Virus record (IMG/VR): IMGVR_UViG_3300020050_016871
Location: 14,455-78,454 of that record
Source: a virus
Taxonomy: Duplodnaviria; Caudoviricetes
Length of the DNA: 64,000 nt
Reading direction: 5' to 3' (one strand)
Under the pieces are notes generated by a model. It did no database searches. It was not told the DNA's origin and saw only the letters and a program-made list of their open reading frames with translations. The translations under genes and the position numbers were made by a program. Shown piece by piece: positions 2,603 to 43,700 of the stretch. Position 1 is the stretch's first letter. Every line of letters starts with the position of its first letter.

Positions 2603-2610
2603 AAGTATGT

Positions 2611-2928
2611 TTAATTTTTAATAAATACAGAATATTTTTTTAAAGCATAATCATGAATTAAATTAGCATACTGTCTTTTCTCTACAAAAATATCAAATCT
2701 TTCAGTAACAGCTTTGTAAATATTTTTTTTTAATTCATCCGGAAATGCTAAAGTAAATAATTCATTTAGATAACCAGCTTTGTATTCTGACTTTTCTCTA
2801 TTTAATATAATATGCTTTGGAATGTAAATTTTAGGGTAAGAGGTAAACAAAAGCCCTCTCAACTGAGCCTTTTCAGGCTCGGTTAAAAGGGAAGGATCTT
2901 TTATTTTATTATTATTGAGTAATATCAT
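2611..2928 (-). CDS. Hypothetical protein
   Basis: 105-aa ORF in a tightly packed operon. Confidence 0.7.
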   Translation of the reverse strand: MILLNNNKIKDPSLLTEPEKAQLRGLLFTSYPKIYIPKHIILNREKSEYKAGYLNELFTLAFPDELKKNIYKAVTERFDIFVEKRQYANLIHDYALKKYSVFIKN

Positions 2929-3319
2929 CTTTAGCGATTGACATAGTAGGATTTTCTTCTTTAGATTTATTTTCAGTTAAAGTTTTTTGAATTAAATCTA
3001 ATCGTTCTTTGTTTTTATTAGCAACAAAAACATCAAATTCTTTGATAAGGCTTTGACTTCGGCGAATACCAAATTTCATTCCCAAATCTTTTTTCATCCT
3101 TAAATCTAATTCTTTTTGAATTTCAACGTATTTTTCATCGGATTCGGCAAGAGCAGCTTGAGATTTATTATAAATTGTTTGAATTTCTTCTTGAGTACAA
3201 TTACCATCAGTTATTGCTTGAGAAATTTCCGTTTGTATCGCAAGATTTGATTGAATAATATTTTCAAGAATTGTAGAATAACTTAGTAAAACTGCAGTAT
3301 GGGTATTTGATAAATCCAT
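2912..3319 (-). CDS. Hypothetical coiled-coil protein
   Basis: 135-aa ORF coupled to neighbours. Confidence 0.7.
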   Translation of the reverse strand: MDLSNTHTAVLLSYSTILENIIQSNLAIQTEISQAITDGNCTQEEIQTIYNKSQAALAESDEKYVEIQKELDLRMKKDLGMKFGIRRSQSLIKEFDVFVANKNKERLDLIQKTLTENKSKEENPTMSIAKDDITQ

Positions 3320-3323
3320 TTTT

Positions 3324-11439: not shown

Positions 11440-11793
11440 ATGAATACAGTTAAATTCATCGGAAACGCAGGAAAAGAACCAAGAATCACAACATTACCAT
11501 CAGGTGATATCGTAGCCAATTTTAATATTGCTACTAGTGAAACATTTCAAAACAAAGAAGGAAACACTGAAACCAAAACAGAATGGCATCCAATTGTAGC
11601 CTGGGGAAAAACTGCTGAAGCAATTCAGAAATTTGTCCGAAAAGGATCTTGTGTTGTGGTTAAAGCGAAAGCTGTCAACCGTAAGTATGAAAAAGAAATC
11701 GAAGTTCCAGTTTCTAAAAATAAAACAATTAAACATAAAATTGAAGTGTATGCTACAGAATACCAAGCATACAACATTACAGTAATGGATTAA
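11440..11793 (+). CDS. ssb: Single-stranded DNA-binding protein (OB fold, no acidic tail); start revised to ATG 11440
   Basis: MNTVKFIGNAGKEP...NFNIATSE...TEWHPIVAWGKTAE...KGS pattern. Confidence 0.9.
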   Translation: MNTVKFIGNAGKEPRITTLPSGDIVANFNIATSETFQNKEGNTETKTEWHPIVAWGKTAEAIQKFVRKGSCVVVKAKAVNRKYEKEIEVPVSKNKTIKHKIEVYATEYQAYNITVMD

Positions 11794-21068: not shown

Positions 21069-22538
21069 ATGAGTCACATTCCAATGACTGCTCCAGCGCA
21101 GACAAGTTCTTTTCCAAAAAAAGAAAAAAATGAAAATTTACAATTAGTACCTACAGGAATGCATCCTGCTATTATCTACGGAGTAGTAAACGTAGGAACA
21201 CAAGATGGAGAATACCAAGGAAGACAAACAGCTTCAAATAAATTAAAGCTGATTATTGAAATCCCAGGACACAGACAATTATATTGGAAAGAAGATACTG
21301 TTCCAACACCATCAGCTATGATTATGGATTTTAATTATAGTGTTTCTAAAAACAAAAAATCAGGAAAGAAAAGCAAATTACTTTTATTGATTGAAAGTTT
21401 GTTTGGCCCATTACAAGAATCTCAATATTTATCTTTTGATATTTCTCAGTTAGCTGGATTAAAAGTATTTGTAAATGTTGTTCATTATTACAAGCAAGAC
21501 CAAACACTAGGAGCTAAAATTGATAGTATTTCTCAATTCAATCCTAATTATGTAGATCCTAACACCCTTGTATTAACAAATCAAATACAAGTGTATTCTG
21601 TACAAATGGGATTTGAAAATATGTCATTTGCACAATTACCTTATTTCTACAGAACTTTAATTAAAGAAAGCCATGAAGGAAAAGCGCACAGTTCTGCAGG
21701 TGGTAGATTTACAAAATTAGATGATAACGGAAACATTGTTGTTGATGATGGTTCAAATAATTATACTACTGCTCCGCTTGGTAAATTAGTAATGATAAAT
21801 CCGGCATATACTTATGATCAGCTGAAATCAGCTGGATGGGATGACCAAGCAATGATTGATAATGGATATGCTAGAAGAGAAGCTGTTCAGGCTCCTGTTC
21901 CCGTTCCTACACCTCAACCACAAGCGCCAGCTCCGTTGCCAAGCATTCCACAAATACAAAATCAACATGCTCAATTACAACAACAAGGCGTTCATCCTGT
22001 AAATTTGACACCATCATCAAATCCAGCACATCAACCAACGGCACCAATGTCTATTCAGCCACAGATGCCACAGGCGCATACCAATCCAGCTCAACCAATG
22101 TTGACAATGATTGACAAAACTGTTTCTTATCAGGATTACATAAATAATGGATGGACTGATGCTTTGTTAATTCAACATGGAAAAGCCATCATGATGCCGG
22201 CTCAAAATGATGTGTTTCCACAAACACCTCCTGTAGCAGTTCCACCCATTGCACCACCGGTACAACAACCGCCTGCTCCACAAATGCAACAAGGTATTCC
22301 ACAAGCACAGCCAGCACCTAATCAAGGTTATGCTCAACCTCAAGCAATTCCGCAAGCGGTACCACAAGGAATACCAGCACCTCAACCAACAGCTGCTCAA
22401 TTGTATCAAAATACACCAGCTGCTCCTGTACAACAAATGGGAAATGTACATCCACCAATTCCACCTGCTCCGATAAGTTCTTTTGAACAACCATCAGCAA
22501 TGAATGGTGACGCACCACCAGATGATTTACCATTCTAA
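21069..22538 (+). CDS. Phage SSB-like / NGO0469-like replication protein with Pro/Gln-rich linker, two W(T/D)D modules and DDLPF tail
   Basis: GMHPAIIYGVVNVGTQ..EYQG N-terminus; acidic-aromatic C-terminus DDLPF as in Bacteroidota SSB. Confidence 0.75.
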   Translation: MSHIPMTAPAQTSSFPKKEKNENLQLVPTGMHPAIIYGVVNVGTQDGEYQGRQTASNKLKLIIEIPGHRQLYWKEDTVPTPSAMIMDFNYSVSKNKKSGKKSKLLLLIESLFGPLQESQYLSFDISQLAGLKVFVNVVHYYKQDQTLGAKIDSISQFNPNYVDPNTLVLTNQIQVYSVQMGFENMSFAQLPYFYRTLIKESHEGKAHSSAGGRFTKLDDNGNIVVDDGSNNYTTAPLGKLVMINPAYTYDQLKSAGWDDQAMIDNGYARREAVQAPVPVPTPQPQAPAPLPSIPQIQNQHAQLQQQGVHPVNLTPSSNPAHQPTAPMSIQPQMPQAHTNPAQPMLTMIDKTVSYQDYINNGWTDALLIQHGKAIMMPAQNDVFPQTPPVAVPPIAPPVQQPPAPQMQQGIPQAQPAPNQGYAQPQAIPQAVPQGIPAPQPTAAQLYQNTPAAPVQQMGNVHPPIPPAPISSFEQPSAMNGDAPPDDLPF

Positions 22539-22924
22539 TGATTCATTTAATCGTTAAAGACGGTAAACCAATATTAAAAGATGAAGCATCTGTAACTTTA
22601 TACAATAGAGTTATGGATGCTTATTCTAATACTGGTAAAATGTTAGTAATGACTATTGAAGAATGGAGTCCTGATATAAATAAAGATCAGCATCAATTAT
22701 TCAAAGCATTACTAGTAAAAGGTTCAGAGGTTTCTGGCTACAAATACAAAGAATTTGAAACTGAATTGATTAATAATTTTGCTCCTTTCAAGTATGAAAA
22801 AAGCTTACTTGGAGAAATGGTTAAAATTAGAAAATCAGTATCTGAAATGAATCGTAAAGAATTTAATATATTCATAGAACAAGCTATTCAATTTTGTGTA
22901 GAATTCTATGAATTAAAATTTTAA
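22538..22924 (+). CDS. NinB/YbcN-like protein
   Basis: QHQLFKAL...RKSVSEMNRKEFNIFIEQ pattern. Confidence 0.5.
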   Translation: MIHLIVKDGKPILKDEASVTLYNRVMDAYSNTGKMLVMTIEEWSPDINKDQHQLFKALLVKGSEVSGYKYKEFETELINNFAPFKYEKSLLGEMVKIRKSVSEMNRKEFNIFIEQAIQFCVEFYELKF

Positions 22925-22926
22925 AA

Positions 22927-23130
22927 ATGAGTATATACATAGTAATATCTCAAGCAACTAGATTAGCAAGTGTGTGGACAAGAAACATACTAACAAAACA
23001 ATTATTATTGTCAGCTTCAATCATTGCTTATTCACTTTTACTGGTTGAACGAAATAAAAAAATAAACAAATATTATGAGCGTTCCAATCCTAACCAATTG
23101 CCAGAAAACAGGAGCTCAGAAAATAAATAA
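22927..23130 (+). CDS. Possible small hypothetical protein
   Basis: 67-aa ORF overlapping the helicase start by 56 nt. Confidence 0.3.
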   Translation: MSIYIVISQATRLASVWTRNILTKQLLLSASIIAYSLLLVERNKKINKYYERSNPNQLPENRSSENK

Positions 23131-24418
23131 ATTTTTGGATTCTAGTGAAAGATTTTTTATACTCACTGGCCCTCCAGGTTCTGGAAAAACATTTTTAATT
23201 AAACATGCTCTTGAACAATTATTAAAAAAAGAAGAGGAAACCGACAACTTACAAGTTGTTGGTATTACTCTTTCCCATCAAGCAAAAAATGTATTAAATA
23301 AAGCTTCTATCAGAAATTGTAGAACATTTGCTTCTGCTTATGGATTTAAAGAAATAATACACGAAGATGGAAGTAGAGAATTTAAACCAGCAAAAAGCTA
23401 TGAAGAAAAACCAGTTGGTCATTTAAATATTCCTGTTTTTGTACATGATGAAATATCACAATACTCTACAGAAATGAAAAGAATTATAATGGATAAAACT
23501 TCTTTATTCAGTAAGGTTATTTTCATGGGAGATATGGCACAGCTTCCTCCTATTGATCCATTAATGGCTCCTGATGAAGACAGTCCAATGTTTTCTTTAA
23601 ATGTTCCAGATTGGTGCAAACACAATTTAAAAGAAAGAGTTCGACAAAAAGTAGGTAATCCAATATTAGATTTGTCTGATATAATCAGAGAAGAGATATT
23701 TGGAAAACAAAACTTAAATCGAGTAATATTAGAAATTCTTAAACCAAAATTATTTGAAGGTAAAGGATATTTAGTATTACCAGAAAGTAAATTGAATAGA
23801 CAATATATGCAATCTAAAAATTTTTTAGAAGATAAAATAATTGCATTTAGAAAATTCAAAGTAAAAGAAATTAATGATAAAATAAAAAATGCTATACATC
23901 CTGATTCACAAGATCTATTAAATACTTATGATTTAGTTTTTATGACAAATAATTTTAAAAACGAAAATCTTAATTATCGATTAATGAATTCTGATCAATA
24001 CATTATTCAAAAAGTAAAAAAGATAATGTATTATGTTCCTGGAGCCGATAAAGAAATTGAATGTTATTTTGGTGAAATTAAAACTAAAGCTTATGAATCA
24101 TATATTATTACTCCAACAGAATTAGGAATGATTGAATATGATAAAACATTAGCAAGATTAAAATCTTATGCAAATCAAAATAGAGCATTGTGGCCAAATG
24201 TATATGCTTTTACAGATTCATTTTGTGATTTTACTATGGGATATGCTATTAACGCATATAAGACTCAAGGTTCAACATATAAAAATGTATTCATTGATTT
24301 AATGGATATATTGGAAACCAAACCTCTTACACCTAAAAGAAAATTGCAAACAATATTTACAGCACTTACTCGTGCTACCGATGTTGCTTATTTTATAAAA
24401 CCCGAAAAAAATGGATAA
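23075..24418 (+). CDS. SF1B Dda/RecD-like DNA helicase
   Basis: GPPGSGKT, VHDEISQ, GDMAQLPPI, RQ, YAINAYKTQGSTY, FTALTRA. Confidence 0.92.
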   Translation: MSVPILTNCQKTGAQKINKFLDSSERFFILTGPPGSGKTFLIKHALEQLLKKEEETDNLQVVGITLSHQAKNVLNKASIRNCRTFASAYGFKEIIHEDGSREFKPAKSYEEKPVGHLNIPVFVHDEISQYSTEMKRIIMDKTSLFSKVIFMGDMAQLPPIDPLMAPDEDSPMFSLNVPDWCKHNLKERVRQKVGNPILDLSDIIREEIFGKQNLNRVILEILKPKLFEGKGYLVLPESKLNRQYMQSKNFLEDKIIAFRKFKVKEINDKIKNAIHPDSQDLLNTYDLVFMTNNFKNENLNYRLMNSDQYIIQKVKKIMYYVPGADKEIECYFGEIKTKAYESYIITPTELGMIEYDKTLARLKSYANQNRALWPNVYAFTDSFCDFTMGYAINAYKTQGSTYKNVFIDLMDILETKPLTPKRKLQTIFTALTRATDVAYFIKPEKNG

Positions 24419-25247
24419 TAATAATCAAATGTTTGCTCCTAAAAATGCTTTCGCACAACCGGTAAAAAAGCATTTTGATAAAGTAGCATTAATAGATGCT
24501 GATAAGATGAAGCATTTAGTAGCTTACGATGTAGCATGTGATTTAAAGAACAATATGCCCCGAAGCCCTAATAGACTATCAATGTTTATAGAAGAACGAT
24601 TGGCAGATATATTCAATAGCTTTTCAGCTAGGGGATATATATTTTGTTTTTCAGGAAAAAGCTCGAATACATTTCGTTCTTCTGTAGCCATAGAAAAAGA
24701 ATACAAAGGAAGCCGTAAAGAAGATCCTAGTTTTTACGAAGGTAAGATTGAAGACATGGCCGAAGTAGTTAGTGTAGTGATGAAAACTCATCCTACACTA
24801 ATTTACAATGATTTAGAAGCAGATGATATTCTTTGTTTTTTACAAACAAAAGATACTTTCATTTATTCCAATGATAAAGATTTAAAACAAATTCATGGTT
24901 TACATTTTGACTTTAATAAAAAAGATTTAGTTGAAGTAACCGAGGACGAAGCTTTTAGAAATTTATGTTATCAAATGATCATTGGAGATTCTACTGATTG
25001 TATTTTGGGATTAAAAGGATATGGTCCTAAAAAAGCAGAAGAGATAATGCAAAAAACACTAACAAAGAATTTAATACATACTATTCTTTGGGAATACCAA
25101 AAAGTATTTGGTTTAACTGCCGGAGCAGATACTTTTGTTGAAACTTGGAACTTGGTAAAACTGCGAATGAATCGCGGTATCCATTTTAAAAAGAAATATG
25201 AATCAGCTTATAATTTACTAGAAATCATCTTAAACAATTCAAAATAA
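24411..25247 (+). CDS. 5'-3' exonuclease (FEN/PolA-N family)
   Basis: LIDAD, EYKGSR, LEADD, SNDKDLKQI, GDSTDCILGLKGYGPKKA. Confidence 0.92.
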   Translation: MDNNNQMFAPKNAFAQPVKKHFDKVALIDADKMKHLVAYDVACDLKNNMPRSPNRLSMFIEERLADIFNSFSARGYIFCFSGKSSNTFRSSVAIEKEYKGSRKEDPSFYEGKIEDMAEVVSVVMKTHPTLIYNDLEADDILCFLQTKDTFIYSNDKDLKQIHGLHFDFNKKDLVEVTEDEAFRNLCYQMIIGDSTDCILGLKGYGPKKAEEIMQKTLTKNLIHTILWEYQKVFGLTAGADTFVETWNLVKLRMNRGIHFKKKYESAYNLLEIILNNSK

Positions 25248-26545
25248 TGGAAAACAAAATGATTCCCCCTCCACCTCCTGGACCGCCAAGAGAAATTGAA
25301 ATCTTTACTCAGCAACAATTAGAAATTTTGCCTTTGGATGCAAAAACAAGTATTGTTGCTTTGGAAGCTAACTTACCTCAGAAAGAGTTGTTAGTATTAA
25401 ATCCGTTGGTATTAAAATTACTAAAAGTAAAAGAGTTAGAAAAATTAGAATATACTCCTTTACCTGAAGAACCAACGGAAGAAGAAATTCAATTACACAA
25501 AGAAAGTATTGAAAAATTCAAAGAAGCTAAAAAAGAAATAGCTGCTTTGAAAAAACAAAATGGTGAAGCTAAATCAGCTATTAAAAAACCATTAGATTTA
25601 TTAGGTAGTCAAGTATTGACAATTGAAAAATCAATTAACTCAGTAATTGTCGAAGTTCTTGAATCTTTAAGTACAACTTTCAAACCTTATTTGGATGCTG
25701 AATCTGAAAAAGCTGCTAAAGCTAAAGCTGCTAAAGAAGCCAAAGCAACTGAGGCTATAAACAAATTGACTGAGGAAAATACAGCTCAAGCAAATGCTTA
25801 TAAAAAAAGTACATTAATTACTTTTTTGAAATATGAAATGCTTGGTGAAACAAAAGTAGAAGTTCAAAATGCTATCGAAAATTATATAATAGATAAATTA
25901 TTTCTTTTAAGAGATAGTTTGCCATTAAAAACTTTTGAAGTATTTACTAAGGAAAAAACAGAAGATCTTTCTTTGCTAGATGAACAAGAATTGGCAAGTA
26001 TTAAAGAGTTTTTCAACAAAGAAATTAATTTGCTTACTTCTAATCTTAATGTAAAAATAACAGCATTACAATTAGAAAAAACAAATGAGAAACTAAGCGA
26101 TACAGTGGAACAGCAAACGGAGCAATTAGAATCAAAGCCTTCTTTATCTATTCCTCCACCGCCTACTATTCCTGCTGCTCCTATATCTGGTCCACCTACA
26201 ACAAGTGGTTCTCCTGCTTCAAATTCAGATTTCTTTGATGTACTTACCAATCATAGTTCTATTCCTTATGGAGCAGGTGCAAATAATGTTTCTGCAAGTA
26301 TTCCAATAGAACTTTATCCTAAAAATTCTAACGAAGTTGATTTCTTAGATTTGGTTATTGATCAAATTAATAATTGTAAAAACAATATTGCCTATATCAG
26401 AAAACGTTTTTTAAATGATACTAACATTGAAAAAACTGAAGATGATAAAAAGAACATTGAAAAAGTAAGAGGCGCTGATTTTTTATTGGACAAAACAATT
26501 GATTACATCCTTGATAAATTACCACCAGCACCATCAAAACAATAA
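25247..26545 (+). CDS. Coiled-coil protein with polyproline stretches
   Basis: 432-aa ORF. Confidence 0.75.
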   Translation: MENKMIPPPPPGPPREIEIFTQQQLEILPLDAKTSIVALEANLPQKELLVLNPLVLKLLKVKELEKLEYTPLPEEPTEEEIQLHKESIEKFKEAKKEIAALKKQNGEAKSAIKKPLDLLGSQVLTIEKSINSVIVEVLESLSTTFKPYLDAESEKAAKAKAAKEAKATEAINKLTEENTAQANAYKKSTLITFLKYEMLGETKVEVQNAIENYIIDKLFLLRDSLPLKTFEVFTKEKTEDLSLLDEQELASIKEFFNKEINLLTSNLNVKITALQLEKTNEKLSDTVEQQTEQLESKPSLSIPPPPTIPAAPISGPPTTSGSPASNSDFFDVLTNHSSIPYGAGANNVSASIPIELYPKNSNEVDFLDLVIDQINNCKNNIAYIRKRFLNDTNIEKTEDDKKNIEKVRGADFLLDKTIDYILDKLPPAPSKQ

Positions 26546-26549
26546 GTAA

Positions 26550-27206
26550 ATGAAAAAAGTATTAATAATGTTTCCGACTATACATAACGGAATCATAAAA
26601 ACAAAAGACCCAACAACTGAACCGTATAATTACGTTTCGGTTGTATGTGGTCATGCAGTTGTAGTTACTCCTTTCTCAAGCATTTTTATTGATCTAAAAG
26701 ATTACTTTGTAAATTATATTACATTGGCTGAAGATCAGAGAGAAGGCTTTCATGAGTTATTAAACTGGATGGAAGGAAAACATTTCACTTCAGAATTTTG
26801 GAGTTATTTAACAGCTTGGAATACAATAGAGGTTGTTGATGACAATTCAATTAGTATTAGTGGAGATAAATTTTATAAAATGCTTCATTATACACATGAT
26901 GAAAACATCAGTATAAAAAATATTTTGAATATGGTTCTTAATAATTTTAAATCTGGAAAATATCAATTAGCATCAATTGGAATTTCTAATTATACTTTAA
27001 AAATTATTGATAAAACTGTTGGTAAAATAATTCAAAAGAATCCATTGATTTTTGAATTTATTTCATTGAACTCTACTATTCGTTTTACAGTGGATAGTAT
27101 GCCTTGCATTTTTGGAATTATACTTTCAAACAACGCATTGACAACTAAGCAATTCATTTTTGATGGATTTAAAAACTTTGCATTGAAATCCGAACTTAAA
27201 TTATAA
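26550..27206 (+). CDS. Hypothetical protein, possible degenerate sliding-clamp-like fold
   Basis: DPTTEPYNYVSVVCGHAVVV and IGISNYTLKII...LIFEF...GIIL loosely echo beta-clamp domains I and III. Confidence 0.4.
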   Translation: MKKVLIMFPTIHNGIIKTKDPTTEPYNYVSVVCGHAVVVTPFSSIFIDLKDYFVNYITLAEDQREGFHELLNWMEGKHFTSEFWSYLTAWNTIEVVDDNSISISGDKFYKMLHYTHDENISIKNILNMVLNNFKSGKYQLASIGISNYTLKIIDKTVGKIIQKNPLIFEFISLNSTIRFTVDSMPCIFGIILSNNALTTKQFIFDGFKNFALKSELKL

Positions 27207-27208
27207 TT

Positions 27209-27658
27209 ATGGATATTATAGAAGCAATACAAAAATTAAAGGATTATAACTATTGGCAAAATGGTGGAATTGATATTGGTCAACCAGAAACTACAGAAGC
27301 CATTAATGTAGTTGCAAAACACTTTGAACAAATTACTGATTATAGTGGTGTTCATATTATTGCCAAAGAGCGTAAAAGACAAATTGAGGAATTAAAATTT
27401 GATTATTCAAATGATTCTTTATATGCTAACAATCAATTAGCACAAGCTGCAGCTTGGTATTCTTTTGATGATGAAACTAGAAATCAATTTTTAAAAAGTA
27501 ATGAAGAAATAGAAGAAGAATTTGGTTTTCGAATAGGAGAAATTTGGCCATGGAAACAATCTTATTTCAAACCAACTCCAGATGATAGAATTAAGGAACT
27601 TGCTAAAGCGGGTGCTTTGATAGCTGCTCAAATTGATTATGAATTAAATAAAAAATAA
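27209..27658 (+). CDS. Conserved phage hypothetical protein
   Basis: IAKERKRQIE...LAQAAAWY...WPW...ELAKAGALIAAQID motif, a recurrent phage family. Confidence 0.75.
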   Translation: MDIIEAIQKLKDYNYWQNGGIDIGQPETTEAINVVAKHFEQITDYSGVHIIAKERKRQIEELKFDYSNDSLYANNQLAQAAAWYSFDDETRNQFLKSNEEIEEEFGFRIGEIWPWKQSYFKPTPDDRIKELAKAGALIAAQIDYELNKK

Positions 27659-27661
27659 TCA

Positions 27662-28330
27662 ATGGCTTCAGAACAAAATCAATTAGAAACTTATTTTGAG
27701 TGGTACATTAACGAACTCAAAGAAGCTGGATTTATTAAATTTGTAAAAAGAGAACCTTTTCCAATACTTGTAAATGATGTTGTTGAAAAAAAACGATATG
27801 ATTTTTCAACAAAAACCCCTAGAATAGAAAATTATAAGTTGTTTCAAAGAAACACTTATACTTGTGATTGGTTTATTATTTGGGAAAAGCATGCTCACGA
27901 AATATTCTACAATTTATTAGATGATACACCCACTAGAATTTATTGTCCTTTTTATGCTATCATTGACAAAAAAGGAGAGCATATTTCTTTTGTAGATGTA
28001 AAACCACCAGCAGGAGCAATGATATTTGGAAACAATACAACAGGTTATACTTTTCCTATACTGCAAAAAATAATTTATACAGTATATGGGATTTATGTAA
28101 ACAAATCAATTCCTATTCCATTAATGAAAAAAGGAACTGTTAAGTCCGGAAACAAATCAGCATTGTTTCTAACAACTTTTGTTCCTAAAAGATATTTGCT
28201 TACAGATGGCGGTATGCAAGGACGCGAAATAAAATATCGTAAACAATCACTGAAAGAGTATGTTGCTTATAAGCAAAAAGAAATTGCTCGAATCAACTTA
28301 GTTTTTCAAAAACAACAAACATTATTGTAA
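27662..28330 (+). CDS. Putative PD-(D/E)XK nuclease
   Basis: YTCDWFI...FVDVKP pattern. Confidence 0.45.
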   Translation: MASEQNQLETYFEWYINELKEAGFIKFVKREPFPILVNDVVEKKRYDFSTKTPRIENYKLFQRNTYTCDWFIIWEKHAHEIFYNLLDDTPTRIYCPFYAIIDKKGEHISFVDVKPPAGAMIFGNNTTGYTFPILQKIIYTVYGIYVNKSIPIPLMKKGTVKSGNKSALFLTTFVPKRYLLTDGGMQGREIKYRKQSLKEYVAYKQKEIARINLVFQKQQTLL

Positions 28331-28830
28331 TGACCGAAGAAAACAAATTAAATAGTTTAGAGCAATTTCAAAAAAACTGTTTTAAAGCTTATAAGACGTT
28401 AGGTTTTTCAGCAGACAATTCAAACATTGTTTTTGAGATAATCATTCAAATGAGAAACCTTGTTGTTTCAGCAGAAGCACAAGACACAATATTGTTACAT
28501 AAACACATGGGATTATGTGCTGAAGCTATTGCTAATTATGCTACAGTAAACAGCATTAAACTAAAAATAGCAATTAGTAAAAATTCGCATCAAAAAATGT
28601 TTCTAGATACTGATTCTTTAGATTTAGAATATTATTTGGAGAAAATAAAAAATGAATTGGCTTTTGTAAATGATATGGAAGATTCTGAAAAAATAGGATT
28701 TATTCAAAAATGTTGGATATCTGTTTTTCCTGAAGAATACCATGATGATTTTTTAAAAGTCGATAGAATTTTAAAAACAGTTATTGAGGATAACAAAATA
28801 AAATTTCCTCAATTCTACATAAACCAATAA
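28330..28830 (+). CDS. Hypothetical protein, degenerate MazG-like helical fold
   Basis: HKHMGLCAEA and VIEDNKIKF echo MazG-like NTP-PPases; catalytic EExGD not evident. Confidence 0.35.
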   Translation: MTEENKLNSLEQFQKNCFKAYKTLGFSADNSNIVFEIIIQMRNLVVSAEAQDTILLHKHMGLCAEAIANYATVNSIKLKIAISKNSHQKMFLDTDSLDLEYYLEKIKNELAFVNDMEDSEKIGFIQKCWISVFPEEYHDDFLKVDRILKTVIEDNKIKFPQFYINQ

Positions 28831-28857
28831 ATCAAACAACAATTAAAAAAAAACATT

Positions 28858-29991
28858 ATGAATTTTTTCGAAACATTATCAGCAACAGGAATTAAAGATG
28901 TAGTATTTCAAGTAAAAGAAGATAGTACAGGAAACATCACTGTTTTTATTACTCCAAAATCAGTATCAGAAGATCCTGCTTTGTCAAAATTAAAACCAAT
29001 TTTTATTAGTGGAACACCACAAGATATTGATGGACAATTTTTTCATTTGATTACTGCTCCTCTTCAAAACATTCAAAAAGTATTTACAAACATAGAAGCT
29101 TTTGAAGCCCAGGCTAAAGAAGTTGCTAAAGCTACTGCAGATAAAAAATCAGCTAAAAAAGCAACAACAACAGCTGCTGCATCGGAAGAAGATGGAGAAG
29201 AAAAAACACCAGCTGCTAAGCCTGAAAAAACAGTTAAAGTCAACAATGAAAAAGTTCTAAAAGAATTTATGACTTCTATTAAAGATGAACCGATTATTGG
29301 TCATAAAGAAAAAATAGAAGAATTGTATGCTTTATTATCTGAAGCTGAGTTAGGAAAACCATTTGCTAAAAAAGTGAGAATCGATTTAGATATTGCTATT
29401 CGTAAAGAAGCAAACTTACAAGCTGCTAGAGAGAAACATGGTTTTACTCCTAAAGAAGAAACTGCCACAGAATCTAAAGATATGAAGATAGTAGATATCA
29501 GCAATCTTACAGTACAAAATGGAGTAATAAAAGAAGTAGTAAACCCAAACGAGAACGCACCTCAAGCTGCTGGTCCAGAAGAGGTAGTTGCTACAAATGA
29601 AAGTGAAAACACAGAAAGTATTATTGATGCTTATGAACAATCTGCTGTAGAAAAAGAAGTTGCTTTTGAACAAGTATCTGCTCCTATAGAAGAAGTAATT
29701 ATTCCTACTCCTACACCACCAGCGCCTGTTGCCGCACCAATAGTTCCGAAAGTACCTGCTGAACCTGAGTTTGAAGAAATTCAACAATTAGTAATGTTAG
29801 TTACTGATGGAACTTATGAAGAATACATTAAAGCTACATGGACTGACGAATTGTTAATTGAGCACAAAAAAGCAGAATACAGAACTGTTAAAGTTCCTGT
29901 TATTAAAACACCGGTAGCCGAAGCACCTGCTCAAAAGTTATCTTATACTTTTCCAACGCAATTTGATGCTGAAGAAGAAGAAAACAATTAA
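28858..29991 (+). CDS. PRTRC system protein E (ParB-related ThiF-related cassette) with long C-terminal extension
   Basis: MNFFETL...GNITVFITP...LKPIFISGTPQDIDGQFFHLITAP N-terminus; first gene of the cassette. Confidence 0.8.
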   Translation: MNFFETLSATGIKDVVFQVKEDSTGNITVFITPKSVSEDPALSKLKPIFISGTPQDIDGQFFHLITAPLQNIQKVFTNIEAFEAQAKEVAKATADKKSAKKATTTAAASEEDGEEKTPAAKPEKTVKVNNEKVLKEFMTSIKDEPIIGHKEKIEELYALLSEAELGKPFAKKVRIDLDIAIRKEANLQAAREKHGFTPKEETATESKDMKIVDISNLTVQNGVIKEVVNPNENAPQAAGPEEVVATNESENTESIIDAYEQSAVEKEVAFEQVSAPIEEVIIPTPTPPAPVAAPIVPKVPAEPEFEEIQQLVMLVTDGTYEEYIKATWTDELLIEHKKAEYRTVKVPVIKTPVAEAPAQKLSYTFPTQFDAEEEENN

Positions 29992-30012: not shown

Positions 30013-30231
30013 ATGGCAATAGTAAAAGAATTAAAAAGAAAGTTCACTATCAAAATAGGAAATGAAGTTATTGAACTTGAAGATCCGAATTCAAACTTTG
30101 AAGCAAAAGATGTAATGGAAATGTATGCCAATCAATATCCTCAATTAGTAAATGCTACTATTGAATCAAAAGGAATTGTTGACGAATGTATTCTGTACAA
30201 TTTTGCGACAGTAGCCGGAACAAAAGGATAA
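30013..30231 (+). CDS. PRTRC system protein C, ubiquitin-like modifier
   Basis: LKRKF...LEDPN...VMEMYANQYPQLVNATIE...YNFATVAGTKG; ends in Gly. Confidence 0.9.
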   Translation: MAIVKELKRKFTIKIGNEVIELEDPNSNFEAKDVMEMYANQYPQLVNATIESKGIVDECILYNFATVAGTKG

Positions 30232-30234
30232 GCT

Positions 30235-30408
30235 ATGAATGCAATTGAATTTTTAAAAATTTTAAAGGAGCGGCCACAGGCTGCTCCTTTTGATAAAAAA
30301 CTTAGTGGTTTATGTCAAAATATTCGATCCAATCAAAAAACAAATTACAAAAACGGAACCGTACAAACAAAAATGGTTCTAAGCAGACAAAAAATATTTT
30401 TCAGCTAA
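30235..30408 (+). CDS. 57-aa ORF inside the PRTRC cassette, overlapping the next gene
   Basis: Manual translation MNAIEFLKILKERPQ...; good start context right after the Ubl stop. Confidence 0.4.
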   Translation: MNAIEFLKILKERPQAAPFDKKLSGLCQNIRSNQKTNYKNGTVQTKMVLSRQKIFFS

Positions 30409-31358
30409 TTGATCAAATTCCTAAAATAAAATATGGAATTAATATTGGTGAACATGATCCTATAATCTTTGCAGAAAATCTTATTACTTTTTTACAATCA
30501 AAACATCCTGAAGAATTAAATAAATTAGTTTTTAAGGAAACTGATAGTTTGAACAAATTGTTAGGTCTATTAGCTAAAACTATTATAGATCTTAAATACA
30601 TAATTGTATATTCTGAAGAAGATAAAACAAATAACGATTTACGAATTTTATATGAGATACCTCATAAAGAATTTATGTGGTATTATTTTGATACAAAAAC
30701 AATTGATGATATAGAAGCTGAAGAATTAAAAATTGGCTTTGCTCATTTTCTATACCATTTTGGAAAATCATGTGAACATAATGCTTTAGATAGTGATTAT
30801 GAAAATACTGTTGATAATCCTTATGAAATGCAATTTGAAATGCTTAGTGATGAAGAAATAGCTTTTGATGAAAATGATGAATTTGATGAAGAGCATTATG
30901 AAAAAATAAGTGATAAAGCTAATGAAGAACTTCAGACATTAAGAGTATTAAAAGAAAAATTTAATTTCTATAATCAAAAACCATTAGAATTGTTTTTAGA
31001 TTACGAACCTAAAAATGATTTAGAAAAAGGATTTAAAGAATGTTTAATAGAAGGATTAGATATTCCTTTTCGTGACATTATGGTTCAATTCATGCCAGAT
31101 GAAGATATTTATAACGATGGAGGTATTGGTTTTGATATGAATTTTGTTTTGTATTTAGATCCAGAAAATGAATTTGAAAAAGAACATTTTACATATATGA
31201 ATGAAAATGCTAACAATGGAATTTCAAATCCTTGTGGCTGGTATTCTGTATCTGAAGGTATTCTAGAACAAATGACTTCAGATGAAGATGCCAAGAATCT
31301 TTTTTATATTCAATGTTATTTGGAAAATATTTATACTCAATTTTTAAATAAAATGTAA
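30312..31358 (+). CDS. PRTRC-cassette acidic protein (protein F position)
   Basis: 348-aa ORF between Ubl and E2, as in Bacteroidota PRTRC cassettes; call is mainly positional. Confidence 0.55.
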   Translation: MSKYSIQSKNKLQKRNRTNKNGSKQTKNIFQLIDQIPKIKYGINIGEHDPIIFAENLITFLQSKHPEELNKLVFKETDSLNKLLGLLAKTIIDLKYIIVYSEEDKTNNDLRILYEIPHKEFMWYYFDTKTIDDIEAEELKIGFAHFLYHFGKSCEHNALDSDYENTVDNPYEMQFEMLSDEEIAFDENDEFDEEHYEKISDKANEELQTLRVLKEKFNFYNQKPLELFLDYEPKNDLEKGFKECLIEGLDIPFRDIMVQFMPDEDIYNDGGIGFDMNFVLYLDPENEFEKEHFTYMNENANNGISNPCGWYSVSEGILEQMTSDEDAKNLFYIQCYLENIYTQFLNKM

Positions 31359-32029
31359 TGATAACACACATTAAAAATGTTGACGAAAACAAATTAGAAT
31401 TTGTTATATGTGGATATTCTAGCGAAATGATTTATCATGAATTCAATTCAGATGAAAACAAATTAGATGCCGGCAAGTCATTGACTTTTGAAACTGCAAA
31501 ATCTATTTTTAATTTTATTAATCAAATAGATGATATTCAAAATTATTCTTTTCAAGACATTATTCCAAAAAATGTTTTAAAGTTTAAAACAGATGAAAAA
31601 TATATTATCTGGGAAACTCCTGAAGGTATTCAAGACATAATTTACAAAGAAAATTTACCTATACAATCAGGAAAGTATTTTGTTCCAAAAATGGTTTGGA
31701 AATTGGTAAATAACAGATTGTCTATTTGGGCAATTAAAAAAAGTGTTTCAAGTAAAAAAGATAAATTATTTCAAGCTCCATTTTTTAACGTAAATGGTAC
31801 CGGAGGTGTTTGTATGGGAAATGCAAAATTTGTTGATAACGGCTATGATTATTTAAAAATAATGAAAAAGGTTGAAGCTGCTTTCTGGAATTCTGTTTTC
31901 ACACATACTATTCAAAACGAACTGCTTAATTTTAATTTTGTAGAATGGTGTAATGATCCAAGATTACATTTAGAAGATTGCAGTCATTTATTGATTGAAA
32001 AGTCAACAATAATTAAAGATATATTATAA
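31358..32029 (+). CDS. PRTRC system protein B, prokaryotic E2 family D
   Basis: IIWETP...YFVPKMVW...LSIWAIK...LFQAPFFNVNGTGGVCMGN...FWNSVFTH; candidate catalytic Cys in VCMG. Confidence 0.88.
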   Translation: MITHIKNVDENKLEFVICGYSSEMIYHEFNSDENKLDAGKSLTFETAKSIFNFINQIDDIQNYSFQDIIPKNVLKFKTDEKYIIWETPEGIQDIIYKENLPIQSGKYFVPKMVWKLVNNRLSIWAIKKSVSSKKDKLFQAPFFNVNGTGGVCMGNAKFVDNGYDYLKIMKKVEAAFWNSVFTHTIQNELLNFNFVEWCNDPRLHLEDCSHLLIEKSTIIKDIL

Positions 32030-32247
32030 TGGCAGAATTTGAAATAGCAGCACCTGGAACAATCTGTTTAATTCAACAAACAGAAGATGGAAGAATTATG
32101 CAATTAGCAATGACAAAAGAACAAAACAATCTTTTACAATTATTGATTGCATCAATGAGCACAGCAAGTCCTTTAATTAAAATGGATCCAGAGTATGATT
32201 TGGTTTTAAAAAATTCATTGTGTAAAAAATGTAAAAATGAAAAATAA
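32029..32247 (+). CDS. Small hypothetical protein within the cassette
   Basis: 72-aa ORF coupled to E2 and E1 genes. Confidence 0.6.
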   Translation: MAEFEIAAPGTICLIQQTEDGRIMQLAMTKEQNNLLQLLIASMSTASPLIKMDPEYDLVLKNSLCKKCKNEK

Positions 32248-33058
32248 AAAAGAAACAATTCATTATGCTCCTGCATATTTTATTGAACCAACGCATCCAA
32301 TAACAATTGCTGTAATTGGCTGTGGTGGTACGGGTTCATTAGTACTTCCTCGATTGGCACGATTGGATTATGTTTTAAAAGAATTAGGATTGCCAGGTTT
32401 GTACGTGCATGCGTATGACGGCGATACTGTAGAGCAAAACAATGTAGGCAGACAGAACTTTAATAAAAATGATATTGGTGAATTCAAAGCGGCCAATTTA
32501 ATCCAAAAAATAAATATGGCTTATGGATTAGATTGGAATGCTACAAATGAATACGTAAGCAATATTCCGAGTGCAAACATTTTAATTACTTGTGTTGACA
32601 AAATTGATTTAAGAACTTTATTTCATGGCGTTTTTAATTCAGATTATAAAAACAAGAACAATGATTATCTTAAAAATTATTATTGGTTAGATTGTGGTAA
32701 CGGTAGAAATTTTGGTCAGGTTGTATTAACTACAATTGGTAAAATAGAACAACCTAAAAAATCAGCATACAATTGTCAATCAATACTTCCATCAGTAATT
32801 GATATCTATGGAGAATTGAACCAATACGATACACAAGAAGCACAAGGTATTGTTGGTTGTTCAATGGCTGAAAGTTTAGCTAAACAAGATGTATTCATTA
32901 ATGATGAAATAGCTGTTCAAGCAGTTAAAATTGTACAGCAGCTGGTTCGTCATTATCGAATTCAATATCATGGCGCTGTAGTCAATCAGGGAACAAGTAA
33001 AGTAATTGGAATTCCGATTCCACAAAACAAAAAATCATGTCAAAATACCAAGAAATAA
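32237..33058 (+). CDS. PRTRC system ThiF-family E1 enzyme
   Basis: VIGCGGTGS, DGDTVEQNNVGRQ, ITCVD, YWLDCGNG..FGQV, GCSMAESLAKQDVFIN. Confidence 0.93.
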   Translation: MKNKKETIHYAPAYFIEPTHPITIAVIGCGGTGSLVLPRLARLDYVLKELGLPGLYVHAYDGDTVEQNNVGRQNFNKNDIGEFKAANLIQKINMAYGLDWNATNEYVSNIPSANILITCVDKIDLRTLFHGVFNSDYKNKNNDYLKNYYWLDCGNGRNFGQVVLTTIGKIEQPKKSAYNCQSILPSVIDIYGELNQYDTQEAQGIVGCSMAESLAKQDVFINDEIAVQAVKIVQQLVRHYRIQYHGAVVNQGTSKVIGIPIPQNKKSCQNTKK

Positions 33059-37721: not shown

Positions 37722-40700
37722 TTATTCAGGTGTTTCAGCACCCATAGGATTTAATCCTTTCAATACAGACAATGCCGAACGCACTGACGGCGGCACTGTT
37801 TTTAATAACATTCTATCTGGATCAAAATGAATATTAGCATCCGACATTACACCACTTGCCACACTCGATGCATCGGTTTTAGAACCCAGCATCTGACTCT
37901 CTTCATTTGAATTCCCTGCTATAAATCCAAGCATGGTCATTAAAGCCATTCCTCTTAATCCTGAGAGGAAGGCTTCTTTTTGATGTGGTTCTAATGAAGC
38001 ATAGTATTCTTTGGCTTTCGCCGGACTCATTCCATTATGGAAAAAGTCACTAGCTGATTTCCCTATTTGGCGTAATGAACCAATATATTTTTGTCCATTC
38101 ATATCAACATCTTCCTGAGCAAAACGCTCTCTAATTTGTGTTGGTATGTGTCTAGAAAATTGCATAAACATTTTACCCAAAGCGTAACGATGGATTCTAC
38201 TTTGATCCGTTGGACTAAATCCTTTTCCATGTGTATTCTTAACACGCTCTTCTAGCGCTTGGAATCGTTCAGGAGTAATTTGTACAGCTCCCGTTTTATA
38301 ATTTCCTTTTTCATCAAACAGATTAAATTCTTCTTCTGTAAGCATACCCAACATGTGCGCTCTTTGAATCCAATCCTCAGTAACAGCCATCGGCGACAAA
38401 GCTAATTTTGTAAACACAGCATCCAACCCTGATTTGGATTCGATATTTACATCATCATAAAAATCAGCTTCCATGTAGCCAAGATTATTTAAAATGTTAC
38501 GAGCACGGTTCCTTCTATCCAAAGTATCAATCCCGATACCTTTATCAATCCCCCAGTAACGTGCTTCACCAGTAATCCATGATTTACCACCTTCACGTTT
38601 TAAGTTCATGTACTTCCCTACCGCCAAATTTCCTATGGCATACAATCCCTTACCAACAAGTAATCCTTTATATCCAAGAGCATAAAAAGTATTTCCTTTT
38701 ACCAATCCATTAATAACGGAATCAGCATTTTTACCAAAAAGAGGTTGTTCTTTTTTCATAATGAATCCCTCTTTTACAACTTCTTTAACGTAATTGTAGG
38801 CATTCTTATAACCGTTCTTATCATTGTAAGCCATAACACCATCAATCATTGGCATCATTGCTTTAAATCCTTGAAATGATTCGTCTCCGTTTGTAAAAAC
38901 AGAAGCGTGAACATATTCAACCAATGCTTTATTTAAATCCATTGACGGCATTAATTCAGCTTTCATAGAACGCGAACTACTAAACCTACTCAGCGGACTC
39001 ATACCCAATAATGTTTCATTTTGCATATTAGAATATATCAATCTGGAACCATCTTCGTTTTTACCTTCTTTCTGTAATTTTTTAGCTTTACTTTTCAATT
39101 TATTGAAAGCTAATAAATCTTTAGTAGTTTGTTCTTTTGATAATGCCAAAGCATTGTATCGATTCTTAATATCTCCAAAAGACATTAGTTCCTCTTTTCC
39201 TGAAACTGTAGTATAAAGTTTCACATCATCAATAGCAGAATCACTTCCTTTGCTATTAACTAACAATCCCAACAACCCCCTATTAGCAAACATTTCAAAA
39301 TTATCCATTGCCGTGTGAGGAATATATCCTTCACGCACTTTATCATTACCATCATAGTTTTTTAAATGATTGGTAACACTTCGAAACGTAGTGTAAAAAT
39401 CATACTCCGCTTTACTTAATTTATTAGTATTGTATAATTTTTTAATTTCCGTTTCGTCTTTAAACTTTAAATTTTTCTGAGTAATACCTTTGGCATCGAC
39501 ATACGTTTCTTCAGATAATAAATTACCATATAGCTTTTGGTAAACATCACTTCTATTATTAAACAATGATTGGCCAATACGCTGTATTGTATTTATTATT
39601 TTGTTTTTACTCAAGCCAAATTTTTCCTGATATAAAGCATCAGTAGCATGGTTGATTACTTTAATGTATTTACCACGTTGCAACACAAACTTTTTGTATT
39701 GGTCATTTAATTCTCGAAGCAATCTTTGTGTTACAGGATGATTAGAAGAGATATTATTATTGTTGAGGTAACTTTCCATAAGTCCAATATCTTTTCCGTT
39801 CTCAATCATTCCAGTAAGCTGACTTTGCTCTACTCCCATTCTATTAGCCAACTCCATAACCAAAGGCGTTGTGATAATAGAATAAGCGTACAAATCTTTT
39901 TGAGCATAAGTAGTATAAAGATTTTTTAAATCTGTATCAGCCATTTGAGAAAAAGAAGTTTGATTATATTGAGAAGTCAAATCATTAGCTTCTTTTTTTT
40001 CTTCCAGATACTTTTTATAAACAAATTCTTTTTGTTCATCACCAATAGAATTATCATATTCCATAACAGCGTTAAACTCCCTTTGGCTTAAGGGAGTAAC
40101 GTCGTTGTAATTATGGTAATCAATTCTTGAAGCGTTTCCTAAATCGGATTTAACTTTTTTTTTTGAAGTATCGCCAAAGCTTTCACTAGCTTTTGACATG
40201 AAACTATTTTCAGCATTAACATCTGAAGCTCTTGCTTTATAAACAGGACGGCTACCATCATCAGCTAATGAAATTGCTTCCAGATTGATATCTCCTTCAA
40301 ATTTATTGTAAGGCTTAATTCTACTTAAAAGCAAATTATTCATTACAGCTGTTCGCTCTGAGAAATCTTTGTATTCTGTACGAGCTTGATTTTTTTCAGC
40401 ATCAGTAATTCCTTCGAAGATATAAGGTTTTCCATCAACTTTAAAAATCATACCGCTACCAATACGCAAAGCTTTATCCAAAGAAACATTATTTGAAGCA
40501 ATGTAGTTTAATAAGTTCTCACCTTGCTTAAATGGCACTCTATCATTTTTAGCATCAAGAATACTACTATTTTGGTTGAACTCATTTGAAATAATCAAAT
40601 TTTCAAGCTTGCTTATAATAGCTTCATCAATCGGTTCATTTTTGGTTTTTGCTTCATGTGCTGCATAAGTAGAAATATCATGATTGGTACCTTCATCGAA

Positions 40701-43700
40701 AACAATTGATAAAGATAGTTTTCCAGTCAATCCATTTTTCATTAAATCTAAAGTGATCAATCCATCTTTAATTTCTTGTGGCAACGCTTTCCATTCTGAT
40801 TGTGCTGCTTTTCTATCTTCCTCGGTTAAACTCTCATTAAAAAAACGAGGGTTTGCAGAAATATAACTTTTTTCATCAAAGACTTTTTTAGATGGGATTA
40901 CATTCTTTTGCCCTGGAGCAAATTTAATATCCATATTCAATGCTCTATTGAATAAAACACTTTTATCTAAAGCAGTTGCTTTTCTATTACCCGGAAGAAG
41001 ATCTCCTTCTAATGTTGAAATGTAATTGTTCACATCGCGAAACACTTTTTCTTTAATAGCTGTTTTTTGAGCAGAACTAATATTATTCAAACCAAGAATT
41101 CTTGATGTATGGAATCGTTTAATAATATCAGAAGAACGTTGCATCTGGTCCTTATTCATTGTATCATCAAAACCAATTTTACTATTTAATGATTCAATTA
41201 ATCCGGAAGTAGAAACACTATAAATATTATTTGCTTTTTTCATAATATTTAAAATCTTCTCAGCATTATCATGATACGCTTTAATATCAGGATTATTTTT
41301 GAAAGCTTCAGGAAAAACCAATAATGGATTTTGTTTTTCAGAATTTACAACTGTATTAAAATCTTTCAATTGTTGTTCCAGGATAAAAGGATTATTTTCA
41401 ATTCCTTTATGACCAGCCATAATTTTTGAAACATGTAATACATCAGCATTAATGGCTTCTAAATTTTCCATTAGCTGAATAATTTGTTTCATTTGGTCTT
41501 TAGTATTAATCATCAAACGATCAGTGTTAATAGCAATATTCTGAACAGGTGCATCACTAATACCAAGTTCTTGATGAATTGCTTTTTTAACATCAGCATT
41601 TTTCATTTTAACAGCAAATGGATTGTTGTTATTAGCTTGATGTTTATTCCAAGATTTTACTGCCTTAGAATTCATAATATCATTTACTTGCTGTAATGAG
41701 AATCCAAGGTTAGTTAATAATGAATATTGATTAATAGTTTGATCATTCAATCCAAGACTATCAGCAAAACCATATTTAGCATTATCCAAAATAATATTGG
41801 CCAACATAGCTGATTTATTGTTACGGCTTTCTTGTCCAACTTCTTTATCACTAAATCGGTCTACTCTCACACCATCAATATTAATCGGCGAAGTTAATTC
41901 TACATTATAAGCTGCTAAATAATTGGCAATACGGTGTGTGTTAAAAATGATACCAATATTTCTTTTTGAAATCATAGTATTATTGTAAGCATCCCTATGG
42001 TAAGATGGACTCATTGGCATTGTTCTTTCGGTTTTATTTTTACCGATTACTTTTAATACTTCTTTTTCAAATTCAATTTTGGCTCTTGTTTGCATTCTCA
42101 TTCCTGGAGAAGTCCATAAGTCAACTGTTTTATCCAAAGCTTCATTAAAGCCAGGTGTTGACTTATCTTTAATTTGAATAAACAAAGAATCCCCATCATA
42201 ATCCGAACCAGCTGTTTCAGAAAAATCAGAATGAACAATTGTTTGATTCCCTTCTCCCTCTAAATAATCAACTGCTTCAAATACTCCTGTAGAAGCAGGG
42301 CCGTGTGAAGGAATACGTGTAGCCATTACATTATCACCACGAACAAACCATCCCACAGTAACACCGTCTTTTTCAAATTTCCCAATATAATCAGAAACAT
42401 CATATCCATAAGAACCTTTAGCTTTTGCTTTACCATGTCTTTGTCTGGCAATCATTAAAGCTACTTCTTTCATTACTTCAGCTTTTGCTTCTGAATTGTC
42501 TTGTGCTGTTGCTTGAGAAAACTTTCCAAGCAAATCAGGATTAGCTTTAATGATACGCATAGCTTGTGGATCCTCTTCAGTCAAATATTGTCTAAATTTC
42601 ACTTTATTTTGCATGTGTTTAGGTAATACAATTTCCATAATTTGAGAACCAACACTTCCATCAGTATTATATCTGTCAACGTGCCCAGCAAGAGTTCCAC
42701 TACCATTTACAGTATATCCATTTCTGTAACGATAATGTAAACTTGGTTTTTGTTGCGCAACACTTCCAGCTGTTTTCAATTTATTACCCGCTTGTTTCAA
42801 TCGATTAGCTAAAGTATTAGTAATGAAATCAGCAATGGCAGGATGGTTTAAATTAGTCAATGACTCTTCAATCATTAAACGCTGTCCTTGGTCCATATTT
42901 TCCAAATCCAAATTTTTCAAAATGAAAGCTTTGTATTTAGCTGGATTCATATCTCCCAATTCAGAAATAATTTCATCAAGATTTTTACTCATATCCTGAC
43001 GAATCAATTTTTGAATTTCTTCACCCATAGCAAGATTATCACCTACCATTCCGTTTACAATAACAGCAGACATAAACTGAACAGGCGTGATAGCTTCTTC
43101 AGTAACTTTATCCATTATTTGTTGTGGACCAAAATTATTAGTAGACAATCCAACAAAACCATCAGCGTTATAATACAACGCATCCAAAGCATTGTGCATT
43201 TTATCTGTTTCAGTTTCTTCTCTTGCATTACCTTGGTTATTAATATGATTATCCAAATCATTATTTAGGTTTTCAAAAGTAATTCCGGATAATGCTTTTT
43301 TGTTATCAGCATTTAAGAAATCACTTTTAATAGCAGAATAAGGAACAGCAAAATTAATGTAGTTATCTTCTCCATTGGTTAAATCCAAAGATGGTTCTTT
43401 ACCAAATTTATCACGATGCCAGTTATTGTAAACATTTTCACGTTCATTCAATAAATTATAAATACCGCGAAGCCCTGGCTCAGTAATTAAAGTGTTTTCG
43501 TCAATGATTGTTGTATATCCTTTGAAGTAAGCAGAAATACCTTTGAAGTTAGGATTGTCACGTTCTACATGATAATTTAATAATTTCAAACCATTATTCA
43601 AATCAAATACTCCAAGCCCAGCATCAACAATTTTTTGAGCTTGTGAACGTGTCATATACATACCTGAATCAGTACTTGCTTTTACTTTACTATCATCAAT

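Follow-up and report, generated by a model that had tools for sequence, protein, structure and literature searches.

The tail of the bacterial single-stranded DNA-binding protein (SSB) consists of a disordered linker and an acidic tip (...DDDIPF, the SSB-Ct), serving as a hub for SSB-interacting proteins. In phage T7, the acidic C-terminal tail of gp2.5 binds the gp5 polymerase as well as the gp4 helicase. Both in gp2.5 of T7 and in E. coli SSB, the acidic tail folds back onto the groove of the OB domain for single-stranded DNA (ssDNA). Here we analyzed a 64,000-nucleotide stretch (referred to as the window) of a Caudoviricetes genome, positions 14,455 to 78,454 of the IMG/VR record IMGVR_UViG_3300020050_016871, in which an SSB-like protein and protein E of a PRTRC cassette share a short module. 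The SSB-like protein hosts two copies of this module in its tail and protein E a third one; the module is predicted to be a folded, acidic mini-domain. Extension of the analysis toward other proteins revealed it to be widespread on the tails of phage SSBs, and it is probable, though far from certain, that it acts as a portable docking tag bringing protein E to the site at which the SSB tail operates.

Three copies of one module in two phage proteins

The initial annotation had reported three segments aligning without gaps, each located in a Pro-rich linker. Their coordinates proved to be exact on the basis of open reading frames (ORFs), BLASTP and a hidden Markov model (HMM): the 29-residue segments cover aa 240-268 (21786-21872) and aa 345-373 (22101-22187) of the SSB-like protein and aa 311-339 (29788-29874) of E, with Pro-rich segments on both sides of all three copies. 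Ungapped identities between them amount to 10/29, 10/29 and 14/29. In a BLASTP comparison of both proteins, the first module of the SSB-like protein matched the E module with an E-value of 5e-6 and the second one with 3e-9, the latter being partly inflated by the Pro-rich flanks. No further copy was found when the whole 78,454-bp genome, translated in six frames, was scanned with an HMM of the three copies (next best E-value 0.5). A chance or low-complexity similarity was rejected on the basis of BLASTP, this genome-wide HMM scan and the profile result of 232 proteins described below. All three modules are retained in a related 80.5-kb IMG/VR phage (L001), whose SSB-like protein is 65% identical to that of the window. 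Since the DNA identity among the three copies is just 48-59%, they are, judged by their sequences, old and maintained at protein level, with no recent duplication.

The module core comprises ~31 aa, or ~45 aa including both strands, with the consensus ..M....TYEQYiaaGWTDe.Lv.hG.A. and, calculated over 219 instances, DATYEQYIAAGWTDEQLVQHGYA. In two separate AlphaFold2 models, the three copies adopt a beta-alpha-alpha-beta arrangement with a predicted local distance difference test (pLDDT) score of ~90-96 amid low-confidence linkers. Copy 1 is modeled with a strand at 240-242, helices at 249-254 and 259-264 and a strand at 268-270 (pLDDT ~90), copy 2 with the respective elements at 344-347, 354-359, 364-369 and 373-376 (pLDDT 85-96), and the copy of E at 304-313, 320-325, 330-335 and 339-348 (pLDDT 91-94 over aa 311-340). 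With this confidently predicted fold, the module would represent an independently folding mini-domain. Its net charge is negative in 87% of the 219 instances (mean -1.9), and direct binding of DNA is therefore unlikely; the same negative charge disfavors an assignment as DNA-binding HeH/SAP-like motif.

Searches for a known domain yielded no assignment. The isolated modules produced no relevant match in Pfam at E<=10, no match in NCBIfam at E<=1, no match better than an E-value of 0.98 in a sequence search of the PDB, and merely unrelated entries of low TM in the ESM Atlas, while the results of fold searches with the full-length models were filled by larger domains. The profile of PHROG 7011 alone takes in the module implicitly.

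A putative SSB with a long tail

The name "SSB-like" appears to be fair for the 489-aa protein, with ssDNA binding being putative, since it combines an OB-fold nucleic-acid-binding core with a Pro/Gln linker and the DDLPF tip, and a tip of acidic-hydrophobic-Pro-aromatic type is kept in 29 of the 48 representatives of its family (DLPF being the commonest ending). The Pro/Gln linker following the core spans 260 residues and has DDLPF as its end. On profile level, the protein reaches 77.4 bits with NCBIfam NF046043 ("phage replication initiation protein, NGO0469 family"; aa 23-203), barely over the cut-off of 75, has phrog_862 as its sole PHROG match and remained without any match, PF10991 included, in a Pfam scan at E<=0.01. 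A second SSB is encoded at window positions 11440-11790 (+), consisting of a canonical bacterial-type OB domain of ~117 aa (phrog_44, E-value 2e-25). It has neither a disordered linker nor an acidic tip; thus, the phage owns a tail-less SSB plus the long-tailed SSB-like protein.

The module as a portable element of phage SSB tails

Querying 1.84 billion representative proteins with a profile built from six copies yielded 232 carriers at E<=1e-3, 33 of them at E<=1e-10. The best 150 of the 232 were grouped by masking the module, clustering the remaining sequence and scanning the representatives against Pfam and PHROGs. Most of these carriers are phage SSBs of at least four families with OB cores that are not mutually alignable, i.e., the SSB-like family of the window (48 representatives), gp2.5-like SSBs of phrog_7011 (34), phrog_112/Pfam Enc34_ssDNA-bd (8), DUF669/phrog_6015 SSBs (2) and a phrog_14578 SSB (1). 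Further groups are formed by PRTRC E (13-14 representatives), by a few fusions to DUF7173 or DUF6378 and by seven linker-only proteins with several modules. A few LRR (leucine-rich repeat) and dockerin proteins in the carrier list were judged to be false positives.

The SSB tails contain 1-4 copies joined by disordered Pro/Gln/Ala linkers, and in many gp2.5-like SSBs the module is the extreme C-terminus. An hhalign comparison of the SSB-like with the gp2.5-like family aligned the module-bearing tails alone (probability 99.7, E-value 2.8e-26) and not the OB cores, and as a consequence of this restriction the module can be considered to move between families. The module is not private to this phage; as a portable element, it is widespread on the tails of phage SSBs. 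Among isolated phages, gp38 of E. coli phage PTXU04, annotated with weak similarity to a protein of phage 9NA, was confirmed as a carrier by the profile (42.5 bits), and two modules were found by profile in B8b_013 of a Pseudoalteromonas phage. The E. coli phages Pondi and HelliStehle_Bas95 are candidate carriers with tblastn matches only (E-value 0.1, 42% identity), and more degenerate versions were detected at the SSB ends of Vibrio CP-T1, Burkholderia BcepB1A and Shewanella SppYZU01. In the SSB-like protein of B8b (2326-3492), ~50 perfect (Pro-Ala)n repeats lie between the two modules, an extreme case of a variable tether.

The seven linker-only proteins (P0088, P0104, P0135, P0140, P0011, P0052 and P0063), all of metagenomic origin, are mostly disordered. 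Their 2-3 modules are placed toward the N-terminus, and they have in common a W.D..G.VW....H motif, a basic K..G.F..RR motif and an acidic C-terminal end that is conserved as ..EL..LIKDW. They matched no family of Pfam, PHROG or NCBIfam, and P0104 as query gave no matches in IMG/VR. Within the same system, these proteins may act as scaffold partners.

Probable acquisition of the module by protein E

The assignment of the second gene as PRTRC protein E was corroborated by matches to PF19556 (63.9 bits, cut-off 26, aa 2-144) and TIGR03741 (46.6 bits, cut-off 37.95), as well as by its position at the head of the cassette, with the genes for the ubiquitin-like protein (Ubl; Prok_Ub), the E2 of family D and the ThiF-type E1 directly downstream. 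Its module copy is located between the disordered linker of E and the acidic/aromatic tail. An alignment of the phage clade, several members of which originate from 78-80.5 kb contigs, revealed the module in 20/20 E proteins, with M313 and W328 being invariant, while the nearby linker is unalignable; the tail following the module is conserved as well and of the KLSYTFPKPFDAEE type.

For comparison, a sample of ~20 non-phage E loci was compiled from two Bacteroidales plasmid records, six GTDB genome loci and a PF19556 search of 401 Bacteroidota genomes, the latter giving 13 matches above cut-off in 11 genomes. The two plasmid loci, found by tblastn, show 31-32% identity to the N-domain of phage E. 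Scanning these chromosome and plasmid loci with the module HMM resulted in 0 copies; the phage loci alone match. A tblastn search of 72,556 plasmids with the module as query (E<=1) returned nothing, and a degenerate-pattern scan of GTDB contigs based on the E alignment delivered no relative of E. The view that E is usually shorter holds for most Bacteroidota, with open frames of typically 184-242 aa, and fails for Bacteroidales, where E is equally long (293-363 aa) owing to a Pro/Gln linker free of the module, combined with an acidic/aromatic tail of another type.

When the nearest counterpart outside E was determined for 14 E modules, it was a module of the SSB-like family in 13 cases, despite 77 gp2.5-type instances in the pool. 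Taking together its presence in all clade E proteins, its absence from the sampled non-phage E and this nearest relationship, E most likely gained the module inside a phage, and the most likely donor would be the phage's own SSB-like gene. The earlier proposal of a phage having grafted its own module onto the cassette is consequently supported with regard to the addition to E and has to be corrected with regard to ownership, considering that the 232 carriers in several SSB families speak against a private invention. Further architectures exist. P0048 is a short, divergent E with module, and in the metagenomic P0096 the order is permuted, with the module right at the N-terminus (aa 6-32) and a PRTRC-E-like domain behind it; hence, the pairing of E domain and module arose or was rearranged more than once. 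Both proteins share the ending ..LNL.

Acidic C-terminal tails with aromatic residues are general among PRTRC E proteins, ending with ..EEEEQEY or ..DPEEQGY in typical Bacteroidota, with ..DPYAEY.DFPEEYR.. in Bacteroidales and with ..FPKPFDAEE in the phage clade. This layout resembles the docking tails of SSB and gp2.5, which hints at E being a hub or adaptor protein.

Genomic context

The source record is a single-contig virus of 78,454 bp with ~30% GC and contains virion-protein and lysozyme-type genes. Within it, the PRTRC cassette (Table 1) is embedded in the replication block, where it is flanked by a Dda-like helicase and FEN at one end and by a DnaG primase at the other. A ParB-related protein is part of the name of the PRTRC system; no ParB-related gene was found among the cassette neighbors scanned, a whole-genome search for ParB not being part of the analysis. 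The order of the cassette genes is the same on the Parabacteroides distasonis plasmid NZ_OY725769.1 (468-4470: E, C, a 375-aa hypothetical protein, E2-D, ThiF), whose E N-domain is 32% identical to that of the phage. A plasmid cassette of this type is likely the kind of source from which the phage cassette was derived.

Megablast and tblastn searches with E and the SSB-like protein against GenBank phages gave no matches, nor did E as a single-protein query in IMG/VR. Elsewhere in the window, the phage encodes a GroEL-type chaperonin (3324-4865, -; phrog_5725, E-value 3e-91) and a giant ORF of 3,962 aa (37722-49610, -), which, like the ORF next to it (49612-51651), has no PHROG match at E<=1e-5.

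Table 1. Features of the SSB-like gene and the PRTRC cassette (window positions).
Feature	Position	Strand	Basis
SSB-like protein, 489 aa	21069..22538	+	OB core, long Pro/Gln linker with two modules, acidic DDLPF tip; ORF call
OB-fold core, aa 20-228 of SSB-like protein	21126..21752	+	
Module copy 1, aa 239-269 of SSB-like protein	21783..21875	+	BLASTP, HMM, AlphaFold2
Module copy 2, aa 344-374 of SSB-like protein	22098..22190	+	BLASTP, HMM, AlphaFold2
SSB-type C-terminal tip DDLPF	22521..22535	+	Direct sequence reading; protein ends ...PPDDLPF
PRTRC protein E, 377 aa	28858..29991	+	PF19556 and TIGR03741 matches; AlphaFold2 model
Module copy 3 with flanking strands, aa 304-348 of E	29767..29901	+	AlphaFold2, clade alignment
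Conserved acidic/aromatic tail of phage E, KLSYTFPxxFDAEE type	29938..29988	+	P366, F369, D370 nearly invariant in clade alignment
Rest of cassette (context)	30013..33058	+	Pfam PF14454, PF14460, PF00899
Prok_Ub (protein C)	30013-30231	+	
F-position gene	30312-31358	+	
E2-D (E2 family D, protein B)	31358-32029	+	
Small ORF	32029-32247	+	
ThiF/E1 (ThiF-type E1, protein A)	32237-33058	+	

Possible roles of the shared module

Position, copy number, acidity and portability of the module argue for a docking element, and we slightly favor, as the overall interpretation, a portable acidic mini-domain that brings E to the site of the SSB tail. According to this scenario, phages would attach the module by disordered linkers to the C-terminal tails of SSBs from several families. 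One clade of ~80-kb phages would have picked up a Bacteroidota-type PRTRC cassette, the E of which then acquired one module copy. The module would bind one common site, be it on a protein of the replisome or of the host or on the SSB assembly itself, and E together with the E1, E2 and Ubl enzymes would be brought to SSB-coated ssDNA at replication forks; as an alternative outcome, E and the SSB tail might be competitors for one partner. Binding by the module as well as its target are what we infer, and a link between the Ubl machinery and replication is plausible on this basis. Going further, E could serve as a substrate adaptor of the Ubl cassette, re-aimed by the captured module to the phage replisome or SSB-coated ssDNA. 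Ubl would then be attached at the fork to proteins of replication or of host DNA metabolism, and the module would act as a general, hitherto undescribed "replication-fork address tag" that phages use and a single conserved receptor recognizes. We regard this extended version as possible and rather doubtful.

Several points weigh against the docking interpretation. The E module drifts fast: in a global alignment of aa 304-348, the copies of the window and of L001 are just ~31% identical, which would fit a loose structural role equally well. The sampling of non-phage E is confined to Bacteroidota and PLSDB plasmids, and the families of carriers are those of the 150 best-scoring proteins.

The same observations can be read in other ways. 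Module copies might bind each other as homotypic "stickers", e.g., by strand pairing as in ribbon-helix-helix dimers, leading to SSB cooperativity or condensates on ssDNA, and E would join the SSB assembly by module-module contact. The 1-4 copies per tail with disordered spacers correspond to the layout of such multivalent systems, the modeled order of strand, helix, G-x-T and helix would leave edge strands exposed, and helper proteins such as P0088, P0104 and P0011 consist almost wholly of linkers and modules; nonetheless, self-association is unlikely considering that AlphaFold2 pairs both strands inside one chain and that many carriers have a single copy. The negative charge of the module, its location beside or in place of the acidic tip and its travelling with OB-type SSBs of several families could, on the other hand, point to an acidic pseudo-substrate that folds back on the ssDNA groove of the OB core and regulates DNA binding, so that the copy on E would have the OB core of the SSB-like protein as its direct binding site. 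One module would then have to fit different grooves, as the OB cores of the carriers are unalignable, and it is also found on carriers without OB domain (E, the DUF7173 and DUF6378 proteins, the linker-only proteins), making this explanation quite improbable.

That the module is a mere spacer or folding nucleus in disordered linkers, lacking a specific interface and present in E as by-product of recombination between Pro-rich linker DNA, would be in line with the fast drift of the E copy and with the repeat-like Pro-rich linker DNA, which could favor illegitimate recombination. Yet the core pattern is maintained across hundreds of distant carriers, the module is kept throughout the clade E proteins next to an unalignable linker, and a second, permuted fusion to the E domain exists, leaving a very small chance for this explanation. 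Finally, the location on PRTRC E beside the Ubl, E2 and E1 genes could suggest an element for Ubl binding or E2 docking specific to the PRTRC pathway. This idea is already disfavored and hardly credible, given that most carriers are SSBs of phages without Ubl cassette in the inspected replication blocks (PTXU04, B8b, CP-T1, BcepB1A) and that the sampled non-phage PRTRC E proteins have no module.

In respect to its significance, PRTRC cassettes have been catalogued for years, and in a full-text literature search no paper was found that connects PRTRC with phages or with ubiquitin, nor did any of the listed titles denote a functional study. The module shared by E and the SSB tail is the first concrete, testable clue to the site of action of this cassette; it directs attention to replication forks or to any partner recruited by the SSB tail. 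In parallel, the module constitutes a domain family without annotation that is present on hundreds of phage SSBs; no paper on such a module was among the results of a literature search on the C-termini of gp2.5-like SSBs. With culturable E. coli carriers (PTXU04 as confirmed carrier; Pondi and HelliStehle_Bas95 by tblastn only), the receptor could come within reach of ordinary pull-downs and, if found, would add a structured counterpart to the SSB-Ct peptide hub.

Comparison with known systems

The modeled order of secondary structure elements of the module is the same as in LysM and ribbon-helix-helix domains, and the G-x-S/T/N turn of the ribbon-helix-helix corresponds to the Gly-x-Thr between the module helices. 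Unlike these domains, the module has much shorter helices (6 residues), no Pfam sequence match at the threshold given above, a net negative charge and a location in cytoplasmic SSB tails. E of the phage shares with E of plasmids and integrative and conjugative elements the N-terminal E domain plus helical domain, the gene order of the Parabacteroides plasmid and the acidic aromatic tail, and differs from the sampled non-phage E in carrying the module, from the typical E of 184-242 aa also in length and from that of Bacteroidales (293-363 aa) in its tail.

Closer parallels are found among SSBs. Many carriers are annotated as gp2.5-like (phrog_7011, phrog_112, PF10991), thus resembling the T7 gp2.5 and Enc34 ORF6-type SSBs. 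Their genes are located in a neighborhood of helicase, exonuclease, SSB and polymerase, and they present the module at the extreme C-terminus, where gp2.5 keeps its partner-binding tail. In contrast, the SSB-like protein of the window has no PF10991 match and a core unalignable with those families, and the module is a structured domain, whereas the gp2.5 tail is a Phe-terminated acidic peptide. Like the SSB-Ct, the module is acidic and located behind an OB core, either within a disordered Pro/Gln-rich tail or at its end, and it is shared with non-SSB proteins, suggesting a role as address tag. The SSB-Ct is a short linear peptide, while the module is folded over ~31-45 residues (pLDDT >90), often found in tandem and, in the SSB-like protein of the window, coexists with a true DDLPF tip. 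By analogy, the closest known concept would therefore be the tail hub of SSB-Ct and gp2.5, of which the module may be considered a folded, repeatable version that is common to a protein of a ubiquitin-like cassette.

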